From IMG/VR virus record IMGVR_UViG_3300020735_000013, positions 1 through 51,077 of that record: a stretch of 51,077 bases of DNA; one strand, 5' to 3'. Position numbers and translations under genes: made by a program. Below are positions 4,524 to 39,307 of this stretch, piece after piece (the first letter of the stretch is position 1; every line of letters begins with the position of its first letter). Source of the DNA: a virus. Lineage: Duplodnaviria > Caudoviricetes. The notes under the pieces were generated by a model that did no database searches, was not told the DNA's origin, and saw only the letters and a list, made by a program, of their open reading frames with translations.

Positions 4524-4619
4524 TTTATTTCCTTAATCTCAGTGGGTATCCCAAGCTGTCTCTGAGTGCGTCTACCGGGAAGTTTCGGTCGTCAGAATGG
4601 GATAATTCTTCCTATACTT

Positions 4620-4649
4620 ACTAATACGCTAATTCTTTCAAAAGCGCCC
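4620..4649 (-). promoter_or_regulatory. Phage late-type promoter GGGCG-N15-GCGTATTAGT
   Basis: Reverse complement: gggcg cttttgaaagaatta gcgtattagt; one of a family of intergenic copies. Confidence 0.7.
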
Positions 4650-8572: not shown

Positions 8573-8578
8573 AATCTT

Positions 8579-8608
8579 ACTAATACGTGGGAGCGGATAT
8601 TTCCGCCC
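8579..8608 (-). promoter_or_regulatory. Phage late-type promoter GGGCG-N15-ACGTATTAGT
   Basis: Reverse complement: gggcg gaaatatccgctccc acgtattagt. Confidence 0.65.
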
Positions 8609-12218: not shown

Positions 12219-12298
12219 AGATTATTTATGTTTTTTTGCGCGGGGTTCTATTGGCCGGCAATGGGGAATAGGGTGGACATAATTGAGTCCTTATTTTA

Positions 12299-12328
12299 AC
12301 TAATACGCTAATTGAGTCTAATCCGCCC
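12299..12328 (-). promoter_or_regulatory. Phage late-type promoter upstream of portal
   Basis: Reverse complement: gggcg gattagactcaatta gcgtattagt. Confidence 0.7.
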
Positions 12329-15027: not shown

Positions 15028-15033
15028 ACTTCC

Positions 15034-15063
15034 ACTAATACGCAACTGGGGTAAATAAGCCCC
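15034..15063 (-). promoter_or_regulatory. Phage promoter heading the packaging operon
   Basis: Reverse complement: ggggc ttatttaccccagtt gcgtattagt. Confidence 0.65.
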
Positions 15064-15923: not shown

Positions 15924-15952
15924 TTGACATTCATTTCAAAGGTCCGTATACT
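15924..15952 (+). promoter_or_regulatory. sigma70 early promoter
   Basis: TTGACA-17 nt-TATACT. Confidence 0.85.
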
Positions 15953-15959
15953 GTTTTAC

Positions 15960-16215
15960 ATCGGAAGTGCAGTGGCTAATCCACTCAGGTAGTAAGCAAG
16001 TAGCACGGGGCCCAGCCCCACACCATCGCCCTTGCCTCTGCTCCAGCTGACATCTGACTGTCGCCAGTGACTAAGTACCAGCTGGCTTACCAACGTGGCG
16101 ATCCCTAGATATGCAAAGGCAAAGACTAGGTGCTGGATAAGAGGCAGTGCTCGAGACCAGCCAGTTAATCACTGAGATAGTATGCACCAGCGTGCTATGC
16201 CAGCAGTTAACTCAC
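15960..16215 (+). ncRNA. Candidate structured early leader RNA
   Basis: No credible ORF; nested helices 16033-39/16140-46, 16042-47/16132-37, 16061-66/16096-101, 16104-08/16126-30, 16177-85/16190-98. Confidence 0.45.
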
Positions 16216-16237
16216 AACACCACACAGGAGTAATACC

Positions 16238-16492
16238 ATGACAACAACAGCAACCAAGGCCACAACCCTGACATTCAAACAGTTAATGACTATCCAGTCA
16301 GTACTGCAGGATGCACGCAGAGAGCAGGCCCATGCAACATACGCACACGATCAGGTAGTTAAGGCATCACTCAAGGGCAACCCTGAGCGCCTTGAGTACT
16401 TAGTGGACGTACAGCAGGCAAACTATGATCAGAAACAAAACCTAGACCACGCATTCTATGCAGTCGAAGAGATGATCAGAGAGTACCAGTAA
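16238..16492 (+). CDS. Early hypothetical protein
   Basis: RBS AGGAG; first ORF after the early promoter. Confidence 0.7.
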   Translation: MTTTATKATTLTFKQLMTIQSVLQDARREQAHATYAHDQVVKASLKGNPERLEYLVDVQQANYDQKQNLDHAFYAVEEMIREYQ

Positions 16493-16495
16493 TCA

Positions 16496-16547
16496 GGTCG
16501 AAACAGTCGTGAGACTGTCTGCACGTTATGCGTGCACTGATGAGACC
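16496..16547 (+). ncRNA. Type II hammerhead ribozyme 1
   Basis: ggtc GAAA cagtc gtga gactg TC^ tgcacg ttatg cgtgca CTGATGA gacc; complete core, three paired stems, GUC cleavage after 16519. Confidence 0.92.
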
Positions 16548-16566
16548 AAACACTAGGAGCTATACC

Positions 16567-16818
16567 ATGCCAAAATTTACAGTGGTTAAACTAATTGACC
16601 AAAACAAAGTAGTGCCAGCAAGACTATTGCCCGAGCAGTCAGGTGACTACCTCGAGTGGTCAGTGGATGATAAAGACACCCTCCAGTACAATACAAAGAC
16701 CAAGCAGTTTAGCTATGAAGAGTATGAATTCCAAGATGATGACTGGGAGCTAGTTAACACCCTTGGCCACGATGTCGCGTACAAAATTGCATTGAACGAG
16801 GGCATCATCTACGAATAA
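16567..16818 (+). CDS. Early hypothetical protein flanked by two hammerheads
   Basis: AGGAG RBS before ATG 16567 (MPKFTVVK...). Confidence 0.7.
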   Translation: MPKFTVVKLIDQNKVVPARLLPEQSGDYLEWSVDDKDTLQYNTKTKQFSYEEYEFQDDDWELVNTLGHDVAYKIALNEGIIYE

Positions 16819-16821
16819 GCA

Positions 16822-16872
16822 GGTCGAAACCACTTGACGTGGTCTATACTTTTCTAGTATACTGATGAGACC
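16822..16872 (+). ncRNA. Type II hammerhead ribozyme 2
   Basis: ggtc GAAA ccac ttgac gtgg TC^ tatact tttct agtata CTGATGA gacc; cleavage after 16844. Confidence 0.92.
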
Positions 16873-16889
16873 AAACAACAGGAGCATAT

Positions 16890-17204
16890 ATGTACACAAT
16901 CAATATCGGATTAGCAAACCCATTCACCGGCAAGTACAACACGACCGACCGCACCATCGCAATGGCCCTGCAGTTTATTGAGGGTATTGTAGACATTAAG
17001 GTATCAACAGCAGGCGATGAGCCTACTGTGATCATCCAGTACACGCACCACAGGGGCAGTATCGCAGTGTTGGCGACTGCATTAGATCAGGACTGCATCG
17101 CACGTTACGATCACCAGCTCCTACGTGGTGAGCTCATTGGTGACAAGGCAGAGGCATGGGGTGAGTTTAACCCTGAGTATTTTCAGACTTGTTTTGGAGG
17201 GTAA
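16890..17204 (+). CDS. Early hypothetical protein
   Basis: AGGAG RBS; DQDCIA..GELIG..WGEFNPEYF. Confidence 0.7.
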   Translation: MYTINIGLANPFTGKYNTTDRTIAMALQFIEGIVDIKVSTAGDEPTVIIQYTHHRGSIAVLATALDQDCIARYDHQLLRGELIGDKAEAWGEFNPEYFQTCFGG

Positions 17205-17208
17205 TATT

Positions 17209-19204
17209 ATGAGTGATCTATTTAAACAGCAAGAGCTATTGAAATCCCTACTGGTAGAGGATGCCCTGCTTTTTGAAGAGGGCGACTGGGACGGGCTGGC
17301 CCAAGTGCGTATGAGTATTGACGCAGTCCGAGATCAAATTGCTAAACTACAAGGAGACTAACATGAGACAGCAAATAGTAGAAATGGCACTGCGTGAGCT
17401 CAACCGGCTAATACTTAATGAGGTAGAATATCCCACGGCCTTTGACCGGTTACTGTTGAACCTAGAGCTCAGTAGTGCTGAGGGTGATGAGCTCCAACGA
17501 TTGTATGACGAACAGGGATGGGCAAGATAATGACTAGAGTACAAACCCATTACCAAGGCGATGCCATGGTGTTTATCCAACGCGACGGCACTAAGGCCAC
17601 GCACCCCTATGAATTCACCCACAAGGGTGTTGACTATTACCTGCTAGGTGGTGTATACTATGACCTAGAGCAGGATTTGATTGACAGAATATTTAATTAG
17701 TTTTCGGTGGTTTGGTGACACTATTCAGCTCAAGTACTCGCAGACGAACGACTAAAAAGACACCAAGCCACCACCCAATACAGGAGGATATATGGCCGTA
17801 TCATTAGCACACAACATGGGTAACATAGTGCGCTCCAATATGAAGTGTACTAACTGCACCCATAAACGCGCATTCTTTTATAGCAAAGGCATTTGGTTTT
17901 GCTGGCACTGTAAGTGCACTCGACCAATGACACCAGTAGAAATTGATCAAGTAAATGAAGAGAACCAAAAACAAAGGGAGTACTCATAATGATTAAATAC
18001 GCAGTCAGATTAGACAATCAGGTAATATGGACCTGCGACGGCAAAGAAGAGCTCTATGATAGTGAGGAGGATGCTCTCTTGGCACTTCAGGAAGAGATGG
18101 ATGCCTGCGAGCGTGCGTGCCATCTTGGCTACATGGAGGACATTGGGGACTTTGACAATTACAGAATAGTGGAGGTGGAAAATGACTAATTGCTACTTAA
18201 TCGAGTTTGAAAATTTAGACGGGTGTTTCCAGTATGAGAGCTTTATGGCTGAGGATCAGTTTGAGGCAATCGACTTGTTTGACGAGCACTACCCAAAGTG
18301 CACGCCTTACAATGTATTCCTACAATTAAACCAATGGAGCAAAAACGATGAGTAAAAAGTACAAAGCATACGCAACAATCTCATACGATCTTGTTTGCGA
18401 GTTTGAGGTAGAAGACGGCGAGGATCCGTGGGACGTGGGGCGTAACCTCGACGGCGGTGATTTTAAAGAGATTGACAATTCCAGTGACTGGAACGTCTTT
18501 GACGTCGTGGAGGTAACAGAATAATGGGCGCGCTATATGACCTGATATTGAACGATGAGTACCGCACCACAATCTACGCGCATGATGAGCAGGACGCGTG
18601 GGAGATTGCTAATAGGTGGTACAATAACCCCGAGCAGGCCAAGATTAAACTACATGAGGAGCAGGTATAATGAAAACAATCACTATGACAATTGACGAAT
18701 ACAACACAATACGTCGTCTCAAAGATTTTGCGCAATGGTACATTGAAGAGCGAGAGCCAAGTGGCGAGCAGTATTTTATGGATCTTGAGGATGTATGTGC
18801 AGGCCAAGCGGCCATTGCGATTATTGACAGTAATATCTTTAAGCAGTATACTGCTGAAACATTCGAACCAACACAGGAGTAATGCCATGACATTCACAAT
18901 CAAAGACGTAAACAACATCGAGACAGACGACGAGGTAAGCCCAGCGGAGTATTACCAGTCAATCCAGCGCGCTATCAATGCCGGTATGTGGTCAATGCAG
19001 GGATCATACGGACGTGCCATGATGGACGCTATCAATGAGGGTAAGTGTTTGTTAGGCCTTAAACCTGCTAAGGATTATTGGGGTAACACTATCCCATCGC
19101 GCCTACAAGTTAAGGACGGCACCAAGGGATCATGGGACTATGTCAAAGAGCACAGCGGCATGGTATGGGCAAACAATATGGCAGGTGTTGACATCAAGAA
19201 ATAA
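17209..19204 (+). other. Array of small, tightly packed early ORFs (e.g. 17792-17989 Cys-rich, 17989-18189, 18670-18882, 18887-19204, plus several <60 aa)
   Basis: Consecutive GGAG-type RBSs and overlapping stop/start codons on the + strand; no recognisable functions. Confidence 0.6.
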
Positions 19205-19216
19205 TTGCAGTATAAT
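19188..19216 (+). promoter_or_regulatory. Consensus sigma70 promoter
   Basis: TTGACA-17 nt-TATAAT, upstream of the genes leading to the phage sigma factor. Confidence 0.88.
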
Positions 19217-19979: not shown

Positions 19980-20543
19980 ATGAATGACTTTTTAACTGAT
20001 TACCTGCAATCCCTGTATGGTATACCAGTGTTAGATTCAGAAGAGGAGTACGCATTAGCAGAGCGCATCAGTCAAGGTGACGAGCAGGCATTAGATAAGC
20101 TGGTCACCCACAACCTGCGCTTTGTGGTGTATACTGTACGCAAACTGACGGCGTGGAACCACTCACGCACACCGCAGGAGGATTTGATTGGCATGGGCAA
20201 CATGGCACTACTAAAAGCCGCTCGCCAGTGGAAACCAACCCAAGGTGCTAAGTTTGCCACGTACGCCAAGGGGTTTATCCTTCGAGGCATTGAGCGTGGA
20301 CAAGATGACACTGAGAACCTGATACGTATACCAATCAAGGTGCGAGAGGAGATGCGCAAACTGATGTACACTGAGCGTGCATTAACTCAAACACTAGGAC
20401 GACAACCCACGGCCAATGAGATGGCCACTATCTTAAACAAGACAACCAAGAGGATTAACCAGCTTAAGTTTTACATGCAACAAGAGCCAGCGTCCTTGGA
20501 CGCACTGCAATTAGATAAACTGGAGGATAACGAAGATGAGTAA
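19980..20543 (+). CDS. sigma70-family factor with regions 1.2, 2 and 3 only (no region 4)
   Basis: DYLQSL..PVLDSEEEYALA, LVTHNLRFVV, EDLIGMGNMALLKAA, KFATYA, LIRIP, LGRQPTANEMA; ends just after SLD and an acidic finger. Confidence 0.88.
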   Translation: MNDFLTDYLQSLYGIPVLDSEEEYALAERISQGDEQALDKLVTHNLRFVVYTVRKLTAWNHSRTPQEDLIGMGNMALLKAARQWKPTQGAKFATYAKGFILRGIERGQDDTENLIRIPIKVREEMRKLMYTERALTQTLGRQPTANEMATILNKTTKRINQLKFYMQQEPASLDALQLDKLEDNEDE

Positions 20544-20883
20544 CTTTACACCCGAGCAAACCCGCGCCTATGAGCGATTCATTCGCGCCCGTAACAATGT
20601 ATCCCTTGGCCAGTACCGCCAGTACAATAAGAACCCATGGCAACCCACCTCAGACGTGGTGTGCACAGTGGACACAGAGAACATGAACCACCCACTGTTT
20701 GAACAAAATGATGCGTGGCTGGAGTACAAAGAGGCCAGCTTAGCATGGTGGGCCATTGAGCCACGCTACCGAGATGAACAGCGTATGCGCTCATCACGTG
20801 GTGATTATGGTAAGGCAGACAACTGGGACGTACGTGCCAGCTATGTAAAGGACAGCTTTAAGAACATCGAGAAAGGGCAGTAA
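20536..20883 (+). CDS. Hypothetical protein
   Basis: 115-aa ORF coupled to the sigma gene. Confidence 0.6.
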   Translation: MSNFTPEQTRAYERFIRARNNVSLGQYRQYNKNPWQPTSDVVCTVDTENMNHPLFEQNDAWLEYKEASLAWWAIEPRYRDEQRMRSSRGDYGKADNWDVRASYVKDSFKNIEKGQ

Positions 20884-20884
20884 T

Positions 20885-21076
20885 ATGAAACTGATACCAA
20901 CAGAAATCCATGAGGATGGTGAGCTCACTAAGATTGAGTACCACAATGAGGCAGGTGAGTTTGTCATCGAGGCAGTATGGGATCCTGAAGATGAGCAGAC
21001 CAGTGAGAATCGTGTAAAATTTCGTGCGTGGGCAACCCGCCTATTAGATCAAAAAGGATATGAGGTGATTAAATGA
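20885..21076 (+). CDS. Hypothetical protein
   Basis: 63-aa ORF in the same operon. Confidence 0.55.
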   Translation: MKLIPTEIHEDGELTKIEYHNEAGEFVIEAVWDPEDEQTSENRVKFRAWATRLLDQKGYEVIK

Positions 21077-21241
21077 ATAAAGATCCATGGGACAACTACC
21101 TAAAATGGTTATTACTTTTCACCGCCTTATACTTTTTAGGGCACATAGCCTGTGCGTTGGCTGATCAGACCATCGTACAGACACCAGGTGCACCGACTAC
21201 TACCTGCATTGTCAACAAGGGATGGGTTACCTGCTTGTAGT

Positions 21242-21467
21242 AAATGAGAATGATTCGCATTTGAGCCCTAATAAAATCAAGGACTTAGCGAAGACTTGCA
21301 TGGGTTGGGTGGGTTGTGTACCATATTCACCCCCCTTATACCCCCCTTTGATTTTTTTAAAAAGATTTTTTAAAAAAGATAAATAAAGGGTTACAACCCA
21401 GACAACCCATGCAGGCAACGTGTAACCCATTGATTTTATTCAATCCAAATGAGAATGATTATCATCT
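21242..21467. repeat. Origin-like element, copy 2 (mirror-symmetric; putative replication origin)
   Basis: Fur-like / IHF / iterons / AT-rich core / iterons / IHF / Fur-like, immediately upstream of primase-helicase. Confidence 0.75.
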
Positions 21468-21475
21468 AGCTTATA

Positions 21476-21518
21476 TTTCACATTGTGAGAGCATAAATAC
21501 CCCATTTTGCGTATTAGT
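21476..21518 (+). promoter_or_regulatory. Phage promoter with upstream TTTCACAWTGTGA palindrome
   Basis: tttcacattgtgaga starts 32 bp before tgcgtattagt. Confidence 0.7.
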
Positions 21519-21539
21519 TATGGCAAGAAGAAAGGAATT

Positions 21540-23840
21540 ATGAAACCAAACACGCTACCAGTCCTGACACAAAACATACCAGCGACCCTAAAGAAAATCC
21601 CACGCTGGGTGATGTGGTCATTCGTCGAGGTAGGTGAGGGCGAGAACAAACGCTGGTCCAAGATGCCACTGCAGACTAATGGCAGACCGGCCTCATCCAC
21701 CAACCCCGAGACGTGGGCAGACTTCCTCACAGTCGAGGATGCCTATCAGTCAGGTAAATTCTCAGGTATCGGCTTTGTGTTCAGCAAGGACGACGACCTA
21801 GTAGGCATAGACTTAGACGATTGCTTTGACCACCAATCAGAGTCTTTCATAAATGCTGCAATGCAGCATCTCGCCAGTCAGGTCGATGGCTACATGGAGA
21901 TCAGCCCATCGGGTACCGGCGTAAAGATATTCACCCGCTCCATCCCGTTTGCCTCACACGCAGACCACTCAATCGGCTTTGAGGCGTATTCTCAATCTCG
22001 GTTCTTTACTGTAACAGGACACCATTTATCAGGGACAATACCCGATGAGCCTCAAGATCTCACAGACATCATTCCCGCCAGAGCTCTACGACACACAGGC
22101 GACGCCTTCGGTGACTACACAGCTCCACTGGAGGGATGGGACATCAACCGAGTCGAGACAGAACTCTTGGCCAACATCGACCCCGAGTGTGGCTACCATG
22201 ATTGGCTCAAAGTCGGGGCAATTCTACACCATCAATTTCATGGCGACGTCGAGGCGCTAGAGGCGTGGGATAGATGGTCAGCAACAGGCTCATCCTACAC
22301 CTCAACGGGTGACTACTCATGCGAGAACAAGTGGAGAACCTTTAAGGGCTCAGGTGCCACGCTGCGCTCATTGATATTCCAAGTGAACCAAAAGGAGCGT
22401 CAGCAGGCATTGGCACGTGGTGAGATTATCCTTGACGCTGGCACCATGAACCACGCCCGTAAATTCTTGGAGTCTTACTACACTGAGGAAGAGGGTTACA
22501 AGTTAGTGCACTACGCCGATGACTTTTATATCTACGGCGGCACACACTATGAGGTAATCGAGGAGGCAACGATCCGCTCCAAGGTATACACCTTCTTAGA
22601 TAAGTGCAAGAAGTCAGGTAAGCAAGGTGCGTTGGTGCCGTTCAACCCATCGCCGGCAACTGTCAGTGGCGCGTTAGATGCAATCAAGTCGATTGTCCAC
22701 CTACCAAACCACCAAAACACTAAGCCACCGATTTGGTTAGAAGAGTATGCACGCACTAAACCCGAGGCCAGCAAGTTAGTCTCACTTAAGAATGGCTTGT
22801 TTCATTTAGAGGACTCGATACTGATACCGCACTCACTGGGTTTTTTTACACAGAACTCTTTGCCGTTTGCTTATGATCCAATAGCCACATCACCAACGTG
22901 GGAGAACTTCTTACACTCGGTGTGGCCTGATGACCAGCAGTCTATCGAGTGCCTTCAAGAAATGTTTGGCTACATCCTTAGTGGTGACACCAAGCAACAA
23001 AAATTCTTCAACATCATCGGCCCACGTCGCTCAGGTAAAGGCACAATCAACAAGGTGCTCGTTGCCCTACTTGGACAACATAACACAGTGGCACCAGAAC
23101 TAGGAGAGCTTTGTGACACATTTGGTCTTCAACCTTGGCTTGGTAAGCTACTCGCTTCTTTTACTGATGCTCGCGCACCGGAAAGGAATCGTTCTGCTGT
23201 GGTTAGTCAGCTTCTTCGTATTGTGGGCGGTGATACCATTACCGTAAATCGCAAGAACAAAGAGGCATGGAACGGATACCTCCCAACGCGATTAGTAATC
23301 TACTCGAACGAAGTTTTGCAACTAACAGAGAACTCTAACGCATTGACTGGCCGTATGATTGTATTGAAGATGACCAAGTCGTTCTTTAATAAAGAGGACA
23401 CCGACCTAGCGCACAAGCTAGAGCAAGAGCTCGGTGGTATCTTTAACTGGGCGATGGAAGGACTCAAGCGTCGTATCAATCGCGGTGGCCACTTTGTGCA
23501 ACCTGAGAGCGGTAAAGAATACCTTGACCTGATGGCCGAGCTGGGCAATCCAATCGGCTCATTCGTTGAGGACGCGTTGATCTTTGACGCCACCTCAATG
23601 GTTAGCAAGGACGATGTGTTTGCATGCTACAAACACTGGGCGCTTAAGAAGTCTATGAGCCCAGGAACCGAGCAGGCATTTAAGCGCAGATTCTTGGCGG
23701 CAACTCAGGAGAACTTTGTTAAGTCAGATCTAGTTAGCACCAACGGCGAGAGATCGCACGTGTACATGGGTGTGCGCTTTAACGACAAGGCACAGAAATT
23801 CTTAGACGGAATTGTAAAATTTGATGAAGGAATATTTTAA
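21540..23840 (+). CDS. Primase-helicase (AEP-type primase, PriCT-2, D5-like SF3 helicase)
   Basis: GIDLDDC, EISPSGTG, RFFTVTG; YHDWLKVGAILH..WDRWS; Walker A GPRRSGKGT. Confidence 0.9.
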   Translation: MKPNTLPVLTQNIPATLKKIPRWVMWSFVEVGEGENKRWSKMPLQTNGRPASSTNPETWADFLTVEDAYQSGKFSGIGFVFSKDDDLVGIDLDDCFDHQSESFINAAMQHLASQVDGYMEISPSGTGVKIFTRSIPFASHADHSIGFEAYSQSRFFTVTGHHLSGTIPDEPQDLTDIIPARALRHTGDAFGDYTAPLEGWDINRVETELLANIDPECGYHDWLKVGAILHHQFHGDVEALEAWDRWSATGSSYTSTGDYSCENKWRTFKGSGATLRSLIFQVNQKERQQALARGEIILDAGTMNHARKFLESYYTEEEGYKLVHYADDFYIYGGTHYEVIEEATIRSKVYTFLDKCKKSGKQGALVPFNPSPATVSGALDAIKSIVHLPNHQNTKPPIWLEEYARTKPEASKLVSLKNGLFHLEDSILIPHSLGFFTQNSLPFAYDPIATSPTWENFLHSVWPDDQQSIECLQEMFGYILSGDTKQQKFFNIIGPRRSGKGTINKVLVALLGQHNTVAPELGELCDTFGLQPWLGKLLASFTDARAPERNRSAVVSQLLRIVGGDTITVNRKNKEAWNGYLPTRLVIYSNEVLQLTENSNALTGRMIVLKMTKSFFNKEDTDLAHKLEQELGGIFNWAMEGLKRRINRGGHFVQPESGKEYLDLMAELGNPIGSFVEDALIFDATSMVSKDDVFACYKHWALKKSMSPGTEQAFKRRFLAATQENFVKSDLVSTNGERSHVYMGVRFNDKAQKFLDGIVKFDEGIF

Positions 23841-23979
23841 TGAACGAGCAAGATGAGAAGAGTTTTTATATGGGGATGATTATCCTTGGACTGATTGTCA
23901 AAGGAGCACCCCTTGGATATATTCCTGACATGGCAACAAATCTATTAAACGAAATCACCAACAAACTAGAGGAGTCAAA

Positions 23980-24405
23980 ATGAAACAACGCGAAGGATGG
24001 GATGGCAAAACATATTACATACCTGAACTGGCTGATATGGTCGGTAAAACATTTAGCTCCGTCAAATTAAATGATGACGACACCGAGCTGTTGTTTGAAT
24101 GCGATGAGGGCACGTTTAGATTTTACCATGCGCAAGATTGTTGTGAGCACGTGCGCGTTGAAGATGTAATTGGCGACCTGCAAGATCTAGTGGGTGAGCC
24201 ACTGCTACGTGCAGAAGAAGAGTCCAGCGATGAGGCGCCAGAGCGTGAAGACAATCCCGACAACTATTGGGATGAGTGCCACACGTGGACTTTCTATAAG
24301 TTTGCAACTCGCAAGGGTTACGTGGACGTACGCTGGTTAGGCGAATCTAACGGCTACTACAGCGAGAGCGTAGACTTTGACTTTACACCAAAACAAGGAA
24401 ACTAA
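23980..24405 (+). CDS. Phage hypothetical protein
   Basis: QDCCE..WTFY..RWLGESNGYYSE; RBS present. Confidence 0.65.
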   Translation: MKQREGWDGKTYYIPELADMVGKTFSSVKLNDDDTELLFECDEGTFRFYHAQDCCEHVRVEDVIGDLQDLVGEPLLRAEEESSDEAPEREDNPDNYWDECHTWTFYKFATRKGYVDVRWLGESNGYYSESVDFDFTPKQGN

Positions 24406-27147
24406 ATGAACATCCATGCACCTGAAAGACAACAAGATGAAACCTTTGCGGGCTACAAGGAGCGTAGGCTCACCTCCAAGGCGATCTACAAAGAAAGCCA
24501 ACGTGGCCAACGATTGGCGGCAATGGATCCTAAACTTTTCTTCGTCACCCCGCATCATTGTAGTGTGGAGCGTAAAGCAAGGCGAGATCAGATTGCACTC
24601 ATGGGAGCTAGGCAGTACAAGCGCCTTACCAAACGGATGAAACGTGAAGCAGTTTAACTTTAGAAAAACCATTGCACGCAACAACTTCACCATCATCTTT
24701 GGTGGTGTTGGTTGTCGCAGAACCGTTTTGCATTTTTCATCGGGAGCCAAATCTAAAGAGCCATATAAGCGCACTAAATTATCTAAAATTCGTAGAGCAC
24801 ATCAAGGCTGGCAAAACAAAGTATTCGGTAGTATTCATGGATTAAAAATTCACCGTCAATACGGCCGCCGCAAACCAACACCGCAATTTAGGAGATAACA
24901 TGGAACGACATCTATTAGCAAACCGCATCATCACCCCTGACGGCACCATGCTCCAGTCATACCATCGCCACGACTACAAAGAGTACGTTGATGCCAATGG
25001 TAAAGAGTATATGATTGATGGCGGTATATACTATCAACGTTGCAACGTGCACGATGACGCACCACACCAAGACGCGAGTGTGTACTCAGACGATCCGCAT
25101 GAAGTCATTAGAGATGCTTTGCACTGGGGAACCTATGGCAAGAACGGCGACAAACCAATCCAATGGAAACCCGTGAGTGCCTTATCAAACCCGCACATCC
25201 ACGCGATCATCACAACCCAGCACCACATCCCCGAGCACATTAAAAAGGTATTTGTAGATGAGGAATTTTACCGCCGTGATCATGGCATTGTGGTGGAGGA
25301 CGCAGAATGAACGCAGATGAATTAGCTGATTTAATGGAAAAATATAGCACTGCTGGATTTATGAGTCCGTTGGCGGAAGAGTTTAAAAAAGCAGCCACAA
25401 TGCTACGCCAGCAACAAGCTGAAATAGAGGCGTTGAACCAGCGCATTGAACGCATGATTGAAAACGCAAGCCATCATGAAGGTATCGCACATGCCGGTGG
25501 GTTTGAACAAGGTCATGAGGTCGGGCGCCAACTTGGCATGAAACAAGAGCGAGCATTGTGGGAACTAGCAGCATCAACACAGGAGATAATGAAATGACCA
25601 CCTTCACCACACAAGACCGGCAAGATGCGCAACGCACTCCGTTGACCGATCATGCAATACTATTAAACGCACGTTATTTTGAAGAGCTATACACAACATA
25701 CGATAAGGCAACAGATACAAATACAGTACATGTTCGTTTTGATGCTTTAAAGTTCGCCCGCGCCATCGAACGCGCCCACGGAATAGGAGAATAGTATGAT
25801 TGAAGTTAAAAAAGTCAGAAGACAAAACGCAATTAAACCAATTCGGTTGAACCAAGGTCAATATATGGCTCTTGTAAATATGGGCGAAGATCCAACCAAA
25901 TTTATAAACAAATTAGTTGCCAAAGTAGCCAAGAAAAGACGCTGGACTTGGTGGTTTGCCAAACAGGCAAATAAACCATGAGCTTCACCATCCACCAAGC
26001 AGACGGCCTCAAAGTCATCCAGTGGTTCCCCACAACCGACGAACTTATTGCCAGCATGCTGGCCAACCCTAACGACGTATACCATAGGAACACATGATGA
26101 CAACCGAACAAGACGCAGTACAACTATACAACCACGTCATGCACAACGCGCTGATCTACGGCCAAGGTTTCTTGCGCTTTACAGCAGACGGCAAGTGTGA
26201 GGTGGTAGATCCCAGCCAATATAAAGAGCTGGCTGAAGCGTTACTGTGGGCAGAAGAAAATCAGGTGAAACATGATGATTGACATAGGACTAGCTTTTAT
26301 CATAGGCCTGATGATCGGGTTGGTGTTAAAACCTAAAAACAAAGACTTAGCTGAGCAACAGGCAATCTACGACAAGAGGCTAATTCAGTACGAGATTGAT
26401 ATTGCATATTATAAAGAACTGTGCAAATGGCACGTAGAACAAAGGAAAGCAAATGACCAAACCAAAAGTAGTTAAACCGGCGGTAAAAGAAAAAAGCGGC
26501 AAAGTAATCGCTGGCACCCCAGCACTCTCACACACCGAGATTGAAAAGAAAGCTGGCCGTAAGAAGAATGAAGACAAGCGTGGCTTCTTGCTATCAACCG
26601 GCGAATTTGCCGATCGTAAAGAGGCCGCCAAGGTAGCTAAGGCTGCAGGCGAGGTAAAGAAACCAGGCAAAAAGCTACACAGCCATGAGCTACGCCAAGG
26701 ACTAGGAATTAAGAAGGCACCGAAATGACAACAACCCGAGACGGAGGTAAAGGTGATGCAAGACGACCACTCACAATTGACGAAGAGCAGTTTAATAAAA
26801 ACTGGGATGCAATCTTTAATAAGGATGATAAGAGCGAGACACCAAGCGAAGATGAATCCGAAATCCTTAACACCATCCCCTTCGGACGCTAAGAAGGCGT
26901 ATGAAGAACGCAAAGAAGCACTACTGAAAGGCAGACCATGACCAAAAAGAAAACAGTCGAGTTTGAAGAGGGCTGGGCCGACGAGCTCGACCTAACCCCC
27001 GATGAGCTGGCTGACCTCATGCGCGGTATAACCCAGCTAGTCGAGACTGGAGAGATCTTTGAAGAGGCCATCCCAGTCAGTGAACTGCCAGAAGAAGAAC
27101 GTGCAGAGATCTATGAGCGCCTAAGCAAAAAGAATACGAGGCATTGA
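24406..27147 (+). other. Cluster of small hypothetical ORFs (24406-24657, 24644-24898, 24900-25310, 25307-25597, 25796-25981, 26094-26282, 26272-26475, Lys-rich 26453-26728, 26938-27147)
   Basis: Same strand, translationally coupled; functions not recognisable. Confidence 0.55.
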
Positions 27148-27755
27148 TGATTAAGAAGAAAAAGAAGTACAACTACTACAAGCTAGACGTTGGCTTTTTT
27201 CCAGACATTGTTAAGCTCTGTTTTGATGACAATGTATTTCAACAAATTTTAAAAGACCATGAGATTACTCTTAAAGCTAATGCACTGGATTGTGGAATTG
27301 CCGAGACTCACCTTATTGGCGATGGCAAAGATGCGATCATCATTCTGGTTTTTAATATGGCTCTTGTTAATGATAATCTTGGCGAGCTGGTTGACACGAT
27401 TACTCACGAAGTTAGTCATGCCGTCGATCACCTGGCCGAGCACATAGGCGAAGAGGATAACTTTGTCAATGAGACCCGCGCCTATCTATCAGGCCATTTA
27501 GCCGGCCAGATCTTTAAGATCTGCATACACGAAAAGGAAAAGTATGCTGGAAAAGCAAGTAGAAAGTTATCTAAACAAGCGAGTAAAAGAAGCGGGCGGT
27601 CTGAGCTACAAGTGGATCAGCTCGGTGAGCGGAGTTTGCGATCGGATAGTACTGATAAACCAGAGGTGCTTCTTCGTGGAACTGAAGACAATGACCGGAA
27701 AGATATCACCAAGGCAGACGATAGTTTTTTCTCAAATGAAAGAACAGGGTTTTGA
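27144..27755 (+). CDS. Hypothetical protein with HExxH motif
   Basis: TITHEVSHAVDH..ETRAY; zincin-like motif. Confidence 0.55.
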   Translation: MMIKKKKKYNYYKLDVGFFPDIVKLCFDDNVFQQILKDHEITLKANALDCGIAETHLIGDGKDAIIILVFNMALVNDNLGELVDTITHEVSHAVDHLAEHIGEEDNFVNETRAYLSGHLAGQIFKICIHEKEKYAGKASRKLSKQASKRSGRSELQVDQLGERSLRSDSTDKPEVLLRGTEDNDRKDITKADDSFFSNERTGF

Positions 27756-27816
27756 GGTGCGTATACTGAAGAGCAAGGAAGACATAGATGAATTTATTAG
27801 GGGCGCTTTGGCATGA
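27544..27816 (+). CDS. VRR-NUC domain nuclease
   Basis: EKQVE..GVCDRIVL..FFVELK..GKISPRQ. Confidence 0.85.
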   Translation: MLEKQVESYLNKRVKEAGGLSYKWISSVSGVCDRIVLINQRCFFVELKTMTGKISPRQTIVFSQMKEQGFEVRILKSKEDIDEFIRGALA

Positions 27817-27830
27817 ATATGCGTATTAGT
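27801..27830 (+). promoter_or_regulatory. Phage promoter GGGCG-N15-GCGTATTAGT
   Basis: gggcg ctttggcatgaatat gcgtattagt. Confidence 0.65.
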
Positions 27831-27922
27831 AGATATAGAGAAGGCGAAAAGGTTTGCAAGCCCTGTCTGTGCCGATACACAGTCTAGCCCCTCTAATATC
27901 CCCTACTTATCGGAGTATCAAA

Positions 27923-28408
27923 ATGAAACTTTGCAATATTTGCAACGAAACAAAACCCCTATCAGAATTTTATAAAAACCCACCTGCAAAAGACGGTCAC
28001 CACAAAGTCTGCATATTGTGCTATTTAAAAAGGAGCAGTAAGTCTAAAAAAGAATACAAAACGACAAAACGGGGGCACATGCAGGCATTTAAGGGAGCGG
28101 CAGCTCATAGAGCAAGAAAAAGTAACTTGCCATTTGATATTGACATTGATTATTTAATGTCTATTGCAACAGACACTTGTCCTGTATTTAAAACACCTTT
28201 CGAATGGGGTCAATATAATGGTCCGAGACATGCTTTCGGTCCGTCGTTAGACAGAATTATCCCCGAATTGGGTTATGTTAAAGGAAACGTAGTATTTATT
28301 AGTAATTTAGCAAATACAGTTAAATCAAACGTTACAGAAAAAGAACTTTATGCTGTGGCCGATTGGTTACACGACGCAAGAAAGAAAGTACTTGATGCTC
28401 AAACGTAA
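27923..28408 (+). CDS. HNH-like homing endonuclease
   Basis: CNIC..KPLSEFY..CILC zinc ribbon; CPVF..PSLDRIIPELGYVKGNV..ANTVK. Confidence 0.8.
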   Translation: MKLCNICNETKPLSEFYKNPPAKDGHHKVCILCYLKRSSKSKKEYKTTKRGHMQAFKGAAAHRARKSNLPFDIDIDYLMSIATDTCPVFKTPFEWGQYNGPRHAFGPSLDRIIPELGYVKGNVVFISNLANTVKSNVTEKELYAVADWLHDARKKVLDAQT

Positions 28409-29729
28409 TCAGCTTCACCAATACCAACTCAATATGATTGAAAAAGCCAAAACTATTCCTCACATGGGTCTATTTATGGAGGTTGGGCTTGGAAAAACTA
28501 TCACCAGTTTGACTATAGTTGCGGAACAGTTTTCGGGTAAAACTTTAATTGTGTGTCCTAAAAAGGTAGCAGAGACTGTCTGGCACAAAGAAGCTGCAAA
28601 CTGGGAGCACACCAAACACCTTAAAATATCAAAAGTATTAGGAACGGAAAAGCAAAGAATTGCTGCGTTGCAAGAGGAAGCAGACATCTATGTAATTAAC
28701 ATCGAAAACATTGTGTGGCTAACTGGCCGCCCAGAAATGTTAGTGTTTACTAACTTAATTTTAGATGAAAGCCAAAAATGGAAAGATGCTAGTACAAAAA
28801 GGCATAAAGCATTGCGTAAGTTCCTAAAACAGTTTACCCATCGTGCTATTTTGACGGCTACGCCCGCACCACAGGGCCTACAAGACCTTTATTCACAGGT
28901 GGGAATACTTGACCTAGGCCAGCGCCTTGGAACGTCTCTGACGGCGTTTAGGACAGCCTACGCAGAACCAGACAAAATCAATAGGCACACAAGACAGGTG
29001 TACTCCTGGAAACTGCGTTCGGGCATGGATGCCATCATTAACAAAAAGATTGAAGATATTTGCTTTTCATTAAAAGCAGAAGACTATTTGCAGCTGCCGC
29101 CTGTAACAGTTATTATACACAAAATAGAAATGTCTAATAGTGCGAGGAAGCAATATGATGAACTTAGAAAAAATATGGTGCTTGAAGTGGAAGAAAACAC
29201 AATCACAGCCCCAACGGCAGCAACACTATCGAACAAACTCTTGCAATTCACTTCGGGCGCGACTTACACAGAAAATGGAGAATGGATCGAAACCCATAGT
29301 GATAAAATGGAATACCTTGTCGAGATCATGGAGAGTAATGTATCACCGACCCTCATCTTTTACAACTACAAACATTCTTTGGAACGACTCAAAGCGCAGT
29401 TTCCTCAAGGTGTGGTGCTGGATGCTTCCAACATCGAGGCGTGGACGTCTGGTAAAATTCCAGTGCTATTCGCACACCCGAAATCCGCTGGCGCTGGGCT
29501 CAATCTTCAAAACAACACAAGTCACGTGGCACAAATCGTATGGTTTGACGGCACTTGGAGCAGTGAAGAGTTCACACAAGGCAACGGGCGTATTCACAGG
29601 CAGGGCCAAACGTCACCGGTTATCATTCATCAGTTAGCCATGGAAAAAACGATTGATGAACTGGTGATTGAGGCGTTGGACAAAAAAGTAGAAGTGCAAA
29701 ATATTTTACTAGACGCCCTAAAAATGTAG
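28395..29729 (+). CDS. SNF2-family helicase
   Basis: EVGLGKT, ILDESQ, LTATP, GAGLNLQ, QGNGRIHRQGQ. Confidence 0.9.
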   Translation: MLKRNQLHQYQLNMIEKAKTIPHMGLFMEVGLGKTITSLTIVAEQFSGKTLIVCPKKVAETVWHKEAANWEHTKHLKISKVLGTEKQRIAALQEEADIYVINIENIVWLTGRPEMLVFTNLILDESQKWKDASTKRHKALRKFLKQFTHRAILTATPAPQGLQDLYSQVGILDLGQRLGTSLTAFRTAYAEPDKINRHTRQVYSWKLRSGMDAIINKKIEDICFSLKAEDYLQLPPVTVIIHKIEMSNSARKQYDELRKNMVLEVEENTITAPTAATLSNKLLQFTSGATYTENGEWIETHSDKMEYLVEIMESNVSPTLIFYNYKHSLERLKAQFPQGVVLDASNIEAWTSGKIPVLFAHPKSAGAGLNLQNNTSHVAQIVWFDGTWSSEEFTQGNGRIHRQGQTSPVIIHQLAMEKTIDELVIEALDKKVEVQNILLDALKM

Positions 29730-29734
29730 CAAAT

Positions 29735-29745
29735 TGCGTATTAGT
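29735..29745 (+). promoter_or_regulatory. Phage promoter core driving leaderless ACP
   Basis: tgcgtattagt, 6 nt before ATG 29752. Confidence 0.6.
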
Positions 29746-29751
29746 GTAGAC

Positions 29752-30045
29752 ATGAATGAAAAAGAACTCCTAGAACTCCTCAAAGGGATCATTGCCTTGG
29801 CAACACCCCTTAACTCTAACGGCGTGGAAATCACGTCATTAGACACGCCGATTGCAGACACCGGCTTAGATAGCCTGGATTTGCTCATGGTGGGGATTTA
29901 TTTGAGCGACGTTTATGGAGTATCTGAAGAGATAGCAAAAACAATGGATCCAGTAACCATTCGAGACATGCTGCAGTTTATGCAATTTCACAGCACTAAA
30001 CAGCCTGTTAGCGTAGAGGCAACGTTAAATGATATATCTAACTGA
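29752..30045 (+). CDS. Acyl carrier protein
   Basis: Small acidic protein with phosphopantetheine site GLDSLDLL. Confidence 0.85.
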   Translation: MNEKELLELLKGIIALATPLNSNGVEITSLDTPIADTGLDSLDLLMVGIYLSDVYGVSEEIAKTMDPVTIRDMLQFMQFHSTKQPVSVEATLNDISN

Positions 30046-31132
30046 TTACAGAACGGTTTGCAATGAGAATACGACGCTTATCTCTGACATTGATTACCCC
30101 CAGCGTGTTCATTGGTTTGCTGATAGCTATAGTAAATCTCATACCGGATTTAGTTACGCACCACATATCGTGGCCTCTAAACTCCTGGACCCGACACTGA
30201 TTGAAGACTTACGCAGCAGAGAAGGTCGTACAGCATTTATCCTAGCAGCGGGCAACACTAACTTTGCTGGGATCAATAAAGACATACCAAAGACTAGCCT
30301 TAGTTACAACTACAAATTTTCACACCTAACATTAACGCAAGTGTACGCTGGAATTTTGGCAAAGTATTTGGGCGCAGAAGACATGATCCTAACAGACTCC
30401 AGCGCATGCGCTTCAAGTCTTAAGGTGATGATGGATGTGCAGATGTTGTTTCAGATGTATCGGTTTGATAGAGTAATTGTTGTATCCGTTGAAGACCAAG
30501 TTAGTAACATGGTATTAAAGTTTTTTGGTGAATCCAAGGCAGTCTTAACGAAAGAACAAGACGACGCCGGCGTTTTACCATCGGCCTTTGATGACGTGAA
30601 TTATGGTTTTCATATCGGCCAGGGTGCTGTACTTGCAGTGTTTGAAAATGAGAACCACGCTAAGAATCCTGCAGCTCGCCTATTAAGCTCGTACAACGCA
30701 TCTGAAAAGGGAGCCAACGCGATAGGACAGCGTGAGGATGGTGAAGGCTTTGCTAAGGCCGCATACGGCGCGTTGCGCTACGGTAACTTAATGCCAAGAG
30801 ATATTGATGTCATTAAGACCCACGGAACCGGCACAAAGTCAAACAACAAGGCAGAACACAGCGCCCTGGTCACTGTATTTGGTAAAGAGTTTACTGCGAC
30901 ATCATTTAAACCAACGATCGGCCACACCATGGGAGCGTCAGGTTTATTAGAGACTTGTCTACTGTTAGATAGTTTAAAAACCGGAGTCGTCCCGCCAATT
31001 AAAAACAGGACAACAGAAGACCACCGGTATCTATCGTCTGCAATTACAGTAGATAAAGATACTAAGATTTTAAGTTTAGCAGCAGGTATGGGAAACATTT
31101 ATTCAGCAGCAATCTTTGATACAAAACTATGA
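30029..31132 (+). CDS. Beta-ketoacyl-ACP synthase (FabB/FabF-like)
   Basis: Catalytic Cys-His-His: SACASS, KTHGTGT, GHTMGASG; C-terminal AAGMG. Confidence 0.9.
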   Translation: MIYLTDYRTVCNENTTLISDIDYPQRVHWFADSYSKSHTGFSYAPHIVASKLLDPTLIEDLRSREGRTAFILAAGNTNFAGINKDIPKTSLSYNYKFSHLTLTQVYAGILAKYLGAEDMILTDSSACASSLKVMMDVQMLFQMYRFDRVIVVSVEDQVSNMVLKFFGESKAVLTKEQDDAGVLPSAFDDVNYGFHIGQGAVLAVFENENHAKNPAARLLSSYNASEKGANAIGQREDGEGFAKAAYGALRYGNLMPRDIDVIKTHGTGTKSNNKAEHSALVTVFGKEFTATSFKPTIGHTMGASGLLETCLLLDSLKTGVVPPIKNRTTEDHRYLSSAITVDKDTKILSLAAGMGNIYSAAIFDTKL

Positions 31133-31440
31133 GAACAAAAACCAAACATAAAGTAAACGCAGCAACTCCAAGATTATCAGATGAAGAGCTTGACCCAATC
31201 GAACAAGACGACGGTGAGGGCGTATCATCGGATATGATGGAGGCATACCTTCCGTGGAGCTTGGAAGATATTATGGATGTTAAAAGACTGATAGCTGATA
31301 AGTTACCAGCCAAGCAGCAGTTTATTTTAGAGGCGTTTTTAGAAGGTTTGACACACTTGGACGTTGAGGTAACAGAAAAATATTGGCGCTATCATTTTTC
31401 TAAGGGTGTTGAGTTTATTAAAAAGGAATTGAATTTATGA
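31129..31440 (+). CDS. Stand-alone sigma region 4-like protein
   Basis: DVKRLIADKLPAKQQFILEAFLEGLT..YHFSKGVEFIKKEL resembles the L..LP..Q..I..EGL..A..L.K sigma4 pattern with a shortened HTH. Confidence 0.5.
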   Translation: MRTKTKHKVNAATPRLSDEELDPIEQDDGEGVSSDMMEAYLPWSLEDIMDVKRLIADKLPAKQQFILEAFLEGLTHLDVEVTEKYWRYHFSKGVEFIKKELNL

Positions 31441-32877: not shown

Positions 32878-33617
32878 AAAAGTATACGTACTGTGATTTA
32901 GAGCAAGCAATTTATCAAGCGTGGCAAACGATGGATGATTTAAAATTGTTTGCTGAAGAGTATTACGATGGACCCCAGGAAATGTCAGTTGATGAAGCGT
33001 TTAACTACATGGAAGGCATTAGGGTACTAGGAGATTTAAAGTTTCGTAAGTTAATGGATATGATGTGCCGCGTGTTTGAGCTCGATGAGTACTGCACGGA
33101 TCCTGAAAAATTGGCACGACGAGATGAAGTATTTGCAGCAGTATTTAATCAACCCAAGAAGAAAGGAAGTAAAAAATGACTGATACAGTCGACGTAGCAG
33201 CACAAGAAGTAGATCCATTAGCGGATAAAATTGTTTCATTGAAGTATAGCGTTAAAGATGTTAATGGCATCATCAATATGATGAACACACCATTACAAAC
33301 TCCGGTCATGGCCTGGGCAAACTTAATCGCTAACATTCAAGCTCAATGTGCACCACAAATTGAGGCCTTGAACGCAAACGCGGAGACACCAAGTGAACCT
33401 CAAACAGCTGCTTAAAAGCGCAGGCATTAGCAACAACATCATTAAAGAAGTTGAACGCAAATCCAAGATGACAACGGCGATGCAAGAAGTAGAGCACCAA
33501 GAAAAGGCTGCAGCAATGGCCAAGATGATGCTTAATGATGTAATGCCCCACCTGCATGGAGCGCTTAACAAAACGCCACCATCAAAACCTAAGAAGACAA
33601 TCATTATTCCGGACTAG
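32874..33617 (+). other. Three small hypothetical ORFs (32874-33179, 33176-33415, 33393-33617)
   Basis: Coupled ORFs on the + strand. Confidence 0.55.
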
Positions 33618-33646
33618 GGCGATTTTGTTAGTAAATGCGTATTAGT
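33617..33646 (+). promoter_or_regulatory. Phage promoter GGGCG-N15-GCGTATTAGT upstream of the tRNA
   Basis: gggcg attttgttagtaaat gcgtattagt. Confidence 0.7.
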
Positions 33647-33732
33647 AGATATAAGGGCTTGTCGGGATGACACCCCTAGCTGTAAAGAAAGCTAATGGCC
33701 CCCTGGAGCCATCATAGAATCCAGGCTATTTA

Positions 33733-34433: not shown

Positions 34434-34476
34434 GCGTATTAGTAAATATACAACTAACCAGACTAAAAAGGCTAAA

Positions 34477-36050: not shown

Positions 36051-36093
36051 TTTCACAATGTGAAATAGTAAAACAGCAGATTTGCGTATTAGT
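36051..36093 (+). promoter_or_regulatory. Phage promoter with perfect upstream palindrome TTTCACAATGTGAAA
   Basis: Palindrome starts 32 bp before tgcgtattagt. Confidence 0.72.
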
Positions 36094-36166
36094 AACAACA
36101 GTAAAAGGTTAGACAGACTGGCACCTACTGAAGACCAGTCTTAATGTTAAAAAGGATTTAATCATC

Positions 36167-39214: not shown

Positions 39215-39257
39215 TTTCACATTATGGGATCTTCGGATCCCATTTTTGCGTATTAGT
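39215..39257 (+). promoter_or_regulatory. Phage promoter with upstream palindrome variant, overlapped by a terminator hairpin
   Basis: tttcacattatggga starts 32 bp before tgcgtattagt; atgggatc-ttcg-gatcccat-tttt. Confidence 0.65.
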
Positions 39258-39307
39258 AGTACTAAGATAAATCGTAGATACGTCTACTTGCCATAGGAGC
39301 ATTAAGT

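Follow-up and report, generated by a model that had tools for sequence, protein, structure and literature searches.

A short phage sigma factor and a distant sigma-4-like protein as a candidate two-part sigma with an optional late switch

We analysed a 51,077-nt linear virus record, an incomplete genome of a tailed phage (IMG/VR record IMGVR_UViG_3300020735_000013; this whole stretch is called the window below), which encodes a sigma factor that stops after region 3 and, far downstream of it, a small sigma-4-like protein. The reading we favour, with a probability of about 0.6, is that the two make up a two-part sigma whose separately encoded second part would be an optional late switch reading the promoter box GGGCG. 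With sigma-2 and putative sigma-4 functions on separate, co-occurring genes, the pair would work like a two-subunit sigma, and the promoters suggest that both subunits are needed only at those of the GGGCG class. The small gene begins 10,586 nt downstream of the short sigma gene, in agreement with the 10.6 kb of a preliminary description made from the letters of this DNA. The genes at issue are the following.

19980..20543, plus strand: short sigma factor of 187 amino acids with regions 1.2-2-3, C-terminus in the acidic 3.2 linker, without region 4
20536..20883, plus strand: conserved open reading frame (ORF) of 115 amino acids overlapping the sigma stop, no family found, candidate third regulator
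31129..31440, plus strand: stand-alone sigma-4-like protein of 103 amino acids, with an acidic N-terminal motif (LSDEExDPxE) and a predicted three-helix domain (residues 44-103)

The short sigma gene starts with ATG, and its product matched the Pfam families Sigma70_r1_2 (residues 5-35), Sigma70_r2 (41-99, above the cut-off) and Sigma70_r3 (123-174). No Pfam match to region 4 was found on the chain, nor on any of the 120 listed homologues among the 414 found. Its predicted model matched SigmaS/SigA with an E-value of 1e-10, and a profile of 38 members aligned with 38 full-length sigmas at a profile-profile probability of 99.95%. In the profile alignment the protein terminates in an acidic 3.2 linker, EPASLDALQLDKLEDNEDE, aligned with the RpoD linker; the equivalent of Y430 is retained and that of W433 is lost. 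A frameshift or assembly error could be ruled out because 59 of 63 distinct short sigmas from the fetched loci end at position 187-189, within two codons of the same point, the other four being truncated by locus ends. A distant member (locus L365, 39%) is short as well, at 180 amino acids. The stop is overlapped by the start of the unrelated ORF 20536-20883, so no continuation is in view. The preliminary claim that this sigma ends after region 3, with no obvious frameshifted continuation, thus holds.

We then looked at the promoter core that this protein might read. The window contains 11 copies of the core CGTATTAGT, where 0.26 would be expected, and our survey of core sites covered 176 sites across 19 fetched records and the window. 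Sites that carry the core and no further box, together with an RNA element that helps to place the core, are listed here.

29736..29746, plus strand: core-only phage promoter GCGTATTAGTG at the end of the SNF2 gene, heading the acyl carrier protein (ACP), ketosynthase and small genes
34434..34444, plus strand: core-only phage promoter before the exonuclease gene
3526..3536, minus strand: variant core-like site GCGTATTAATA inside a structural gene, which may be a chance match
36106-36169: Rfam DUF2815 RNA before the single-stranded DNA-binding protein (SSB) gene, 12 nt after the core
29749..31132, plus strand: ACP and ketosynthase genes, inserted between the promoter and the small gene in a minority of relatives

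The RNA start 12 nt past the core at 36084 is as expected if the core is a -10 element. Relatives fall into five core classes (GCGTATTAGT, TTGCATTAWT, TTGCATTAGT, TTGCATAAGT and TTGTATATAT), which differ in the -12/extended -10 zone (GCGT versus TTGC). Among 16 genes compared by pairwise identity, the sigma gene alone separated these classes without overlap: its identity was 0.81 within class A and 0.51 between classes A and B, while the corresponding values were 0.76 and 0.79 for SNF2, 0.86 and 0.85 for ribonucleotide reductase (RNR) and 0.86 and 0.86 for terminase, and the exonuclease likewise showed no sharp drop. On a 60-row sigma tree, classes A, B and D each occupy one strongly supported branch, those of A and D containing unlabelled rows as well, and class C is split. 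R102, E105, K120 and R122 are among the sigma residues that track the class; of these, R102, E105 and K120 align with sigma70 Q437, T440 and H455, which we take to be readers of the -12 and extended -10 positions. Positions without such a role (F4, Y24) rank equally high, because class and descent are confounded. Taken together, this covariation makes it very likely that the short sigma reads the -10 core, and it gives good support to the core-reading step of the earlier proposal, in which the short sigma would fire the core-only promoters.

The short sigma gene itself is preceded by promoters of the host type, as was proposed when its transcription was ascribed to host sigma70.

19188..19216, plus strand: perfect host sigma70-type promoter TTGACA-17-TATAAT, the nearest strong site upstream of the short sigma gene
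15924..18852, plus strand: span with four more strong sigma70-type promoters (15924, 16834, 17630 and 18824), heading the early region

The window has five strong sites of the TTGACA-17/18-TATAAT type ahead of the short sigma gene. In relatives, a host-type site was found within 4 kb on the sense strand at 33/46 loci and on the other strand at 17/46; with a strict pattern the counts were 10/49 and 0/49. At 49 loci, the 3 kb preceding the sigma gene were free of phage core sites (0 of 49). A generic sigma70 scan was not above shuffles overall (44 versus 35.0, s.d. 6.1), and only the top early-region sites were used. These sites fit the proposal, and their activity in the cell is what we would expect from their form.

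A second element marks a subset of the core promoters. Wherever GGGCG occurs within 60 nt upstream of one of the 176 core sites, it does so with a spacer of exactly 15 nt (73 of 73, 0.10 expected); these are orthologous promoters, so the count reflects conservation and not 73 independent events. At ten more core sites GGGCA stands at the same spacer. In the window alone, GGGCG lies exactly 15 nt upstream at 5 of 13 core-like sites (P about 2e-13). When the G that frequently follows is counted, the box ends 17 nt before TATTAGTA; a 17-nt gap is the -35/-10 geometry of sigma70 promoters. The box is kept in all five core classes, and in the 19 records GGGC(G/A) preceded the portal gene in 9/9 cases, the capsid run in 12/12, the run after the capsid in 9/9 and the run of the tRNA and the gene resembling the terminase small subunit gene (terS) in 13/13. 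By the genes that follow it, GGGCG is a mark of putative late, virion-gene promoters.

12298..12328, minus strand: GGGCG-N15-core, portal gene
8578..8608, minus strand: GGGCG-N15-core, GroES-like and capsid genes
4619..4649, minus strand: GGGCG-N15-core, genes downstream of the major capsid gene
33617..33647, plus strand: GGGCG-N15-core before tRNA-Thr and the gene resembling the terminase small subunit gene
27801..27831, plus strand: GGGCG-N15-core before an HNH endonuclease gene, pointing through SNF2 toward the small gene
15033..15043, minus strand: phage promoter of the terminase operon, with a degenerate upstream box, GGGGC

Of the earlier claim that late promoters carry GGGCG at the -35 position, the part concerning virion genes stood, with its fixed spacer of 15; the terminase operon is mostly without the box. 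The promoter of the small gene had no GGC at the -35 place in any of 46 direct cases or of 17 in which it acts through the ACP gene. Across the 19 records, 12 of 13 such promoters lacked both GGGCG and the palindrome described below, the remaining one being a likely chance match 44 nt away. The placing of the small gene behind a core-only promoter was therefore right as regards the site at 29736, although in the window this lies 1.4 kb upstream with the ACP and ketosynthase genes in between. Two side observations belong to these promoters: a tRNA-Thr(TGT) lies at 33733-33815 behind its GGGCG promoter, and HNH endonuclease genes often bring a late-type GGGC(G/A) promoter of their own (window 27801-28408; records G002, G004, G010 and G026).

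We turned to the small protein as the candidate reader of this box. Homologues accounted for 595 of 597 candidates, and the ratio of nonsynonymous to synonymous differences (pN/pS) was 0.13-0.22 (seven pairs, raw proportions); 31129-31440 is a real, conserved gene. No cultured members were found in 50,697 phage records. The predicted model has a mean pLDDT (model confidence) of 78, rising to 84-98 across residues 41-103, with helices at 45-58, 61-71 and 83-100. A wide structural search of 48,161 chains gave Z scores of at least 8 for eight chains, all eight of them sigma factors (Z 8.0-8.5, root-mean-square deviation 1.8-3.9, 54-66 residues aligned). Foldseek returned nothing at E<=0.001, and a sequence search of solved structures gave only chance hits. 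Among 52 aligned members, 14 matched Sigma70_r4_2 below the cut-off (best E-value 0.0036). Since the members stay below the cut-off and the copy in the window has no sigma-4 Pfam hit, the likeness rests mainly on the predicted fold, and we describe the protein as sigma-4-like by predicted fold rather than by sequence. The earlier comparison of the ORF with an isolated region 4 was in this sense borne out for the predicted fold and not for a sequence match or for an intact helix-turn-helix.

A 30-row profile of the small protein ran colinear with sigmas from the 3.2 linker to the end of region 4, pairing V81-TEKYWRYH with V-TRERIRQI of RpoD, an alignment that a narrower 52-row profile failed to reproduce. 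From the start of the scaffold helix to K84 there are 10 residues in 75/75 members, against 14 in 37/38 sigmas, and the predicted model has no scaffold helix before the recognition helix. Judged by this alignment, one helical turn is missing from the helix-turn-helix, which is four residues shorter. The recognition helix is the best-kept part of the domain (out of 75: K84 74, Y88 74, H89 72, W86 71, R87 70, E83 65), and D22 and E25 of the acidic N-terminus are invariant (75/75). The order of events does not draw on the tree of the small protein, whose branches are long. As a side observation, among the 45 distinct sigma loci whose upstream DNA reaches far enough, 4 carry a second, divergent sigma-4-like copy in the early region directly upstream of the short sigma gene (L107:8982-9275; L382:7610-7945; L383:3031-3435, equal to L385; L384:9834-10136). 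The usual sigma-4-like copy was also kept in the three of these records that we checked.

The two genes occur together in 6/6 complete family records, two of the six being near copies, and in 23/37 records searched with both profiles, in keeping with the co-occurrence that had been put forward as a check. Of the other 14 records, 13 are fragments that do not reach the position of the other gene, and one (G032) has an unrelated sigma. Across the family the genes lie 7-11 kb apart, under different types of promoter.

The promoters of replication genes revealed a third element, a 15-bp palindrome TTTCACAnTGTGAAA. It was present at the promoters of SSB (11/11), polymerase (6/6), primase (7/14) and exonuclease (3/16), compared with 2.1% of random 60-mers. 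Its distance to the core was 7 (one case), 17-18 (17 cases) or 28-29 nt (nine cases), in steps of one helical turn; two further spacings (12 and 44) are probably chance.

21476..21519, plus strand: palindrome TTTCACATTGTGAGA (21476-21490), 18 nt, core; primase promoter
36051..36094, plus strand: palindrome TTTCACAATGTGAAA (36051-36065), 18 nt, core; SSB/RNR promoter
39215..39258, plus strand: degenerate palindrome (39215-39229), 18 nt, core; run of phosphoesterase, RNA ligase and DNA polymerase genes

The spacing of the palindrome thus varies by helical turns, whereas that of GGGCG is single, and the palindrome is probably the site of a separate dimeric regulator. It has been lost in whole sub-clades, with none at the promoters of G024, G025 and G031. 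The two-class promoter scheme of the preliminary description was for this reason incomplete, because many replication promoters of the core-only kind carry the palindrome, and because the terminase promoter mostly lacks GGGCG. The ORF 20536-20883, for which no family or fold lead was found, is at most a candidate for the palindrome binder: four loci without it have the palindrome, and many with it have none at primase, although in one sub-clade (L135-L140) it was lost together with the palindrome. Extra copies of the palindrome lie near the divergence of early and terminase genes (window 15575-15609).

Which protein would read GGGCG? Since the box stays the same in all five core classes, it is not read by the variable surface of the sigma, and the short sigma cannot reach it because it has no region 4. 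No other sigma-4-like gene was found among the 51 window proteins scanned, which include many small ORFs without a family. The near-invariant recognition helix of the small protein matches the unchanging GGGC. We co-folded residues 40-103 with a betaproteobacterial beta flap, with no interface given, and obtained a score of 0.54 (runs 0.54, 0.50 and 0.55), against 0.00 for three controls; at least 77% of the contacts agreed between runs and the partner pLDDT was at least 81. In the calibration, the mark was reached by 116/157 solved and 2/215 mismatched pairs, and among the pairs that reached it, scores up to 0.60, the zone of our 0.54, were those of 18 solved pairs and of both mismatches. Likeness to solved sigma-4/flap complexes may explain why the co-fold passed. 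The flap co-folding that had been suggested as a check therefore came out above its best control, yet in a zone shared with both mismatched pairs. We infer that the small protein reads GGGCG from the flap of RNA polymerase. This is also the best reading for the earlier statement that it adds GGGCG recognition: the predicted sigma-4 fold and the fixed spacing speak in favour, the flap co-fold does so weakly, and the shortened helix-turn-helix does not.

The order of events that we propose is as follows. Host sigma70 would transcribe the early region, including the short sigma gene, from the observed sites. The short sigma, on host RNA polymerase and without a -35 reader, would read and open the -10 core GCGTATTAGTA and fire the core-only promoters, including that of the small gene, as the covariation of sigma and core suggests, and also the replication promoters that carry the helically phased palindrome. 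Once accumulated, the small protein would occupy the vacant beta flap tip, as the co-fold weakly predicts, perhaps with its acidic N-terminal motif as an anchor in the RNA exit channel, like a 3.2 linker. There it would add recognition of GGGC(G/A) at a fixed distance and turn on the virion-gene promoters. The polymerase would serve as the scaffold, and the two proteins need not touch. A fuller version, which we offer tentatively and at somewhat less than even odds, is a sigma70-type factor divided within the 3.2 linker: the 1.2-2-3 part would be self-sufficient, and the other part would be a plug-in that reads the -35 box with a non-canonical helix-turn-helix shortened by four residues. The same large part would serve three promoter classes according to its partner (none, a palindrome-binding regulator or the sigma-4-like plug-in), with a second early plug-in in some relatives, as a natural mix-and-match developmental timer.

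Several observations weigh against the two-part sigma with a GGGCG-reading switch. On the side of the fold, the small protein of the window itself had no sigma-4 Pfam match; the leading Foldseek rows were sigma-4 domains with weak statistics (best E-value 0.82); a Z score near 8 is within the range that the tool calls common for small helical folds; and the 30-row profile reached a profile-profile probability of only 2.7% (E-value 0.017). Given the helix-turn-helix shortened in all 75 members, sequence-specific reading is not guaranteed. As to a link between the partners, GGGC is invariant, and therefore no covariation ties the box to the small protein. In tracking the sigma, the small protein (rho 0.61) does not stand out from portal (0.65) or terminase (0.59), so that no co-evolution of the two beyond background was seen. 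Covariation of the -35 box and the recognition helix was sought in a lineage with a changed helix (L365, L530-L533), in fragments that hold no late promoter. Co-occurrence of the two genes is common to all core genes, and the records were chosen for holding one of them. No fused form of the sigma turned up: 33 hits among cluster representatives, the two longer of which resembled chimeric ORFs, had no sigma fusion, and 7,997 longer candidates gave none at E<=0.01, which is weak evidence; we count the absence of any fused form on this side.

The promoters contribute further points of the same kind. The small gene's promoter shares its -35 zone with codons of SNF2, and this overlap by itself could account for the absence of the box there. 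The GGGCG promoter at 27801, which points toward the small gene, is a possible source of feedback and is absent in relatives without that HNH gene. At the terminase operon, GGC stood at the -35 place in 12 of 31 distinct copies and GGGC(G/A) in only 2 of 31; in the 19 records neither GGGC(G/A) nor the palindrome was present (9/9). In one divergent lineage, the promoter of the small gene does carry GGGCG, with a 14-nt spacer (L366, L368, L371). Over the whole lineage, which also includes L367, L369 and L370, the promoter form is GGGCG/AGGCA-N14-GTGTATTAGT, and in L366-L371 the exonuclease and SSB genes appear to use host-type promoters. From its promoters, this lineage appears to have a rewired cascade.

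The same evidence can be read in other ways. The small protein might bind the flap without reading any sequence, as a gp33-like co-factor or as a blocker that displaces region 4 of host sigma70 and shuts off host and early promoters, with another phage or host protein reading GGGCG. The shortened helix-turn-helix would suit such a role, and the flap co-fold fits it equally well. T4 gp33 is described as a repressor of basal transcription that sits on the flap tip without reading any sequence (PMC2988020). For SPO1 Gp33, which had long been regarded as one half of a split sigma, inhibition of early transcription by sigma-A is reported (PMC13401047); the divergent second copies in the early region of some relatives could be blockers of this kind. 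Still, flap binding alone should not require the near-invariance of the exposed face of the recognition helix. A single fixed spacing needs a polymerase-tethered reader, for which the window proteins scanned offer no other sigma-4-like candidate. We consider a non-reading flap binder unlikely. Alternatively, the small protein could be a free-standing late activator of the LtrA/RinA type, which binds GGGCG alone or in oligomeric form and brings in the polymerase together with the short sigma. Stand-alone Sigma70_r4-like late activators encoded just after the replication module are described for the LtrA family (PMC3753634), the small gene is similarly placed, in Caulobacter phage RLK other regulators occupy the position after SNF2, and the small protein shows no special co-evolution with the sigma. 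Ltr proteins, by comparison, bind several 7-nt direct repeats at one terS promoter (PMC3753634), whereas a single 5-bp box, which should be too short for free binding, stands here at a fixed -35 position in many promoters; the weak flap co-fold also speaks for a tethered protein. On balance a free-standing activator seems quite unlikely.

Two further explanations give the small protein no part in reading GGGCG. As a dimeric binder of TTTCACAnTGTGAAA, either an activator or a shut-off repressor, it would fill the place of the palindrome's so far unassigned partner at the SSB, polymerase and primase promoters, and GGGCG would be read by, for example, region 3 of the short sigma or host factors. 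This is very unlikely, as G024, G025 and G031, without promoter palindromes, keep the small gene, the same recognition helix and GGGCG, and by established geometry the box lies about 20 bp beyond the reach of region 3. There is likewise only a slim chance that the small protein is unrelated to sigma, for instance a packaging or replication accessory with a common three-helix fold, and that the short sigma is a minimal sigma like T4 gp55. The window copy's lack of a significant sequence match to sigma-4 and the common helical arrangement that a Z score near 8 can reflect would both be accounted for; three kinds of search nevertheless point to sigma-4 and to little else, and the strictly spaced GGGCG box would be left without a reader.

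The two genes lie in the genome of a tailed phage whose structural genes are encoded on the minus strand. The early region starts at about 15.9 kb, and the replication genes (primase, SNF2 helicase, exonuclease, SSB, RNR, family A polymerase) are clustered on the plus strand. Relatives with complete genomes, 64-68 kb in length, are syntenic with the window. By capsid, the nearest cultured relatives are Caulobacter phages RW, RLK, KcrB and GB2A (66%), with HTVC023P-type phages at about 40%; one relative is binned in an 'uncultured beta proteobacterium' genome, a weak hint at the host. The small gene directly follows the SNF2 helicase gene in 73 of 101 distinct relatives, although further replication genes come after it; 27 have the ACP/ketosynthase insertion and one has another arrangement. 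Close homologues of the ACP and ketosynthase lie among tail genes in outgroup phage MW202545. Neither the sigma nor the small gene was detected in two outgroup phages of the Caulobacter RLK group, whose capsids are 66% identical. In RLK, the slot after SNF2 holds OmpR-type and GcrA-like regulators, which marks it as a regulatory slot and fits a free-standing activator as well. Two RLK genes (L526, 18374-18937 and 29328-29645) resemble parts of GcrA: gp061, after SNF2, matches its N-terminal part (E-value 5.7e-8), and gp049, before primase, weakly its C-terminal part (E-value 0.043). They may form a split GcrA-like regulator that occupies the same two slots of the genome.

Other features of the window are noted for completeness. 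The terminase large subunit is split into two overlapping ORFs (12331-14756), as in all relatives examined, and the first of these has a weak homing-endonuclease match. A structural-region protein with an ART-PolyVal ADP-ribosyltransferase domain (43260-44885, minus strand) is present in some relatives only. A 135-nt direct repeat (15145-15279 and 21341-21475, 81% identical) flanks the early region; each copy has inverted GGGTTGTCTGGGTTG arms and A/T tracts and lies ahead of the terminase and primase promoters, respectively, so it is possibly a replication origin or a recombination site. Four 19-nt boxes, AAATGA(G/T)AATG...CAT, lie at 15251, 15539, 21242 and 21447, with similar ones in G002 and G008; we take them to resemble the box of the iron regulator Fur.

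If the two-part sigma with an optional late switch is correct, the phage would run a one-sigma transcription cascade in which a separate -35-reading subunit reprograms the same holoenzyme; in known split sigmas, both halves are needed at every promoter or the flap binder reads no DNA. It would also mean that a sigma-4 can work in trans with a shortened helix-turn-helix. With its five natural sigma/-10 pairs, the family offers material for testing how -12 and the extended -10 are recognised, and for orthogonal two-input switches. Among 30 sampled Pseudomonadota the flap tip is almost the same, which makes E. coli polymerase a plausible test system.

We finally compared the pair with known systems. 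T4 gp55/gp33, named as a precedent in the preliminary description, resembles it in combining a phage sigma that lacks region 4 and reads only a -10-like element with a separate flap-tip protein of about 110 amino acids, and has been called a split sigma (PMC2988020, PMC7892883). This precedent holds more loosely than was thought, as gp33 is described as structurally unrelated to sigma-4 (PMC7892883) and as reading no sequence (PMC2988020), while a sigma-4 fold is predicted here. T4 gp55 is a sigma-2 domain with a helix-loop-helix, whereas the phage protein is sigma70-like with regions 1.2-2-3, and T4 late promoters have no -35 box and need the gp45 clamp (PMC2988020), in contrast to the fixed GGGCG box. 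No sliding clamp gene was found among the 51 window proteins scanned, in a record that is incomplete relative to the 64-68 kb genomes. SigO-RsoA (YvrI-YvrHa) of Bacillus subtilis and Sig7-Sig8 of Tn916 share the division of sigma-2 and sigma-4 functions between two polypeptides that act jointly on core polymerase (PMC8103513; 10.64898/2026.10.01.756105). In PMC10141391, the domains of SigO-RsoA are tabulated the opposite way round. There the two parts lie in one operon, both are needed, and the sigma-2 part is small and divergent. The phage genes are distant and under different promoter types, with a large 1.2-2-3 part that is cut in the 3.2 linker and appears to serve promoters without a -35 box.

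LtrA and the related RinA, ArpU and LtrC of Gram-positive phages are stand-alone sigma-4-like proteins encoded just after the replication module that activate packaging genes (PMC3753634). They differ in being sufficient alone with host polymerase and in using direct repeats at one terS promoter (PMC3753634), whereas the promoters described here have a -10 core that tracks the phage sigma and a single GGGCG at one spacing in several promoters per genome. SPO1 gp34/gp33, Francisella MtvS1-MtvS2 and mycobacteriophage gp53-gp52 are two-protein modules for which replacement or displacement of host sigma has been proposed or shown (10.64898/2026.10.01.756105, PMC13627669, 10.64898/2026.10.05.756390), with SPO1 Gp33 now reported as a sigma-A inhibitor (PMC13401047). 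None of them is reported to add a -35 box at promoters that its partner already serves, and we saw no sequence relation to them. This family's pair had no description in the full-text literature searched, a coverage that leaves out most subscription journals. By its sequence features the pair would differ from each precedent in the cut point, in its distant and differently timed genes and in an apparently optional, sequence-reading second part. New here are the palindrome promoter class spaced by helical turns and the early-region paralogs of the small gene.

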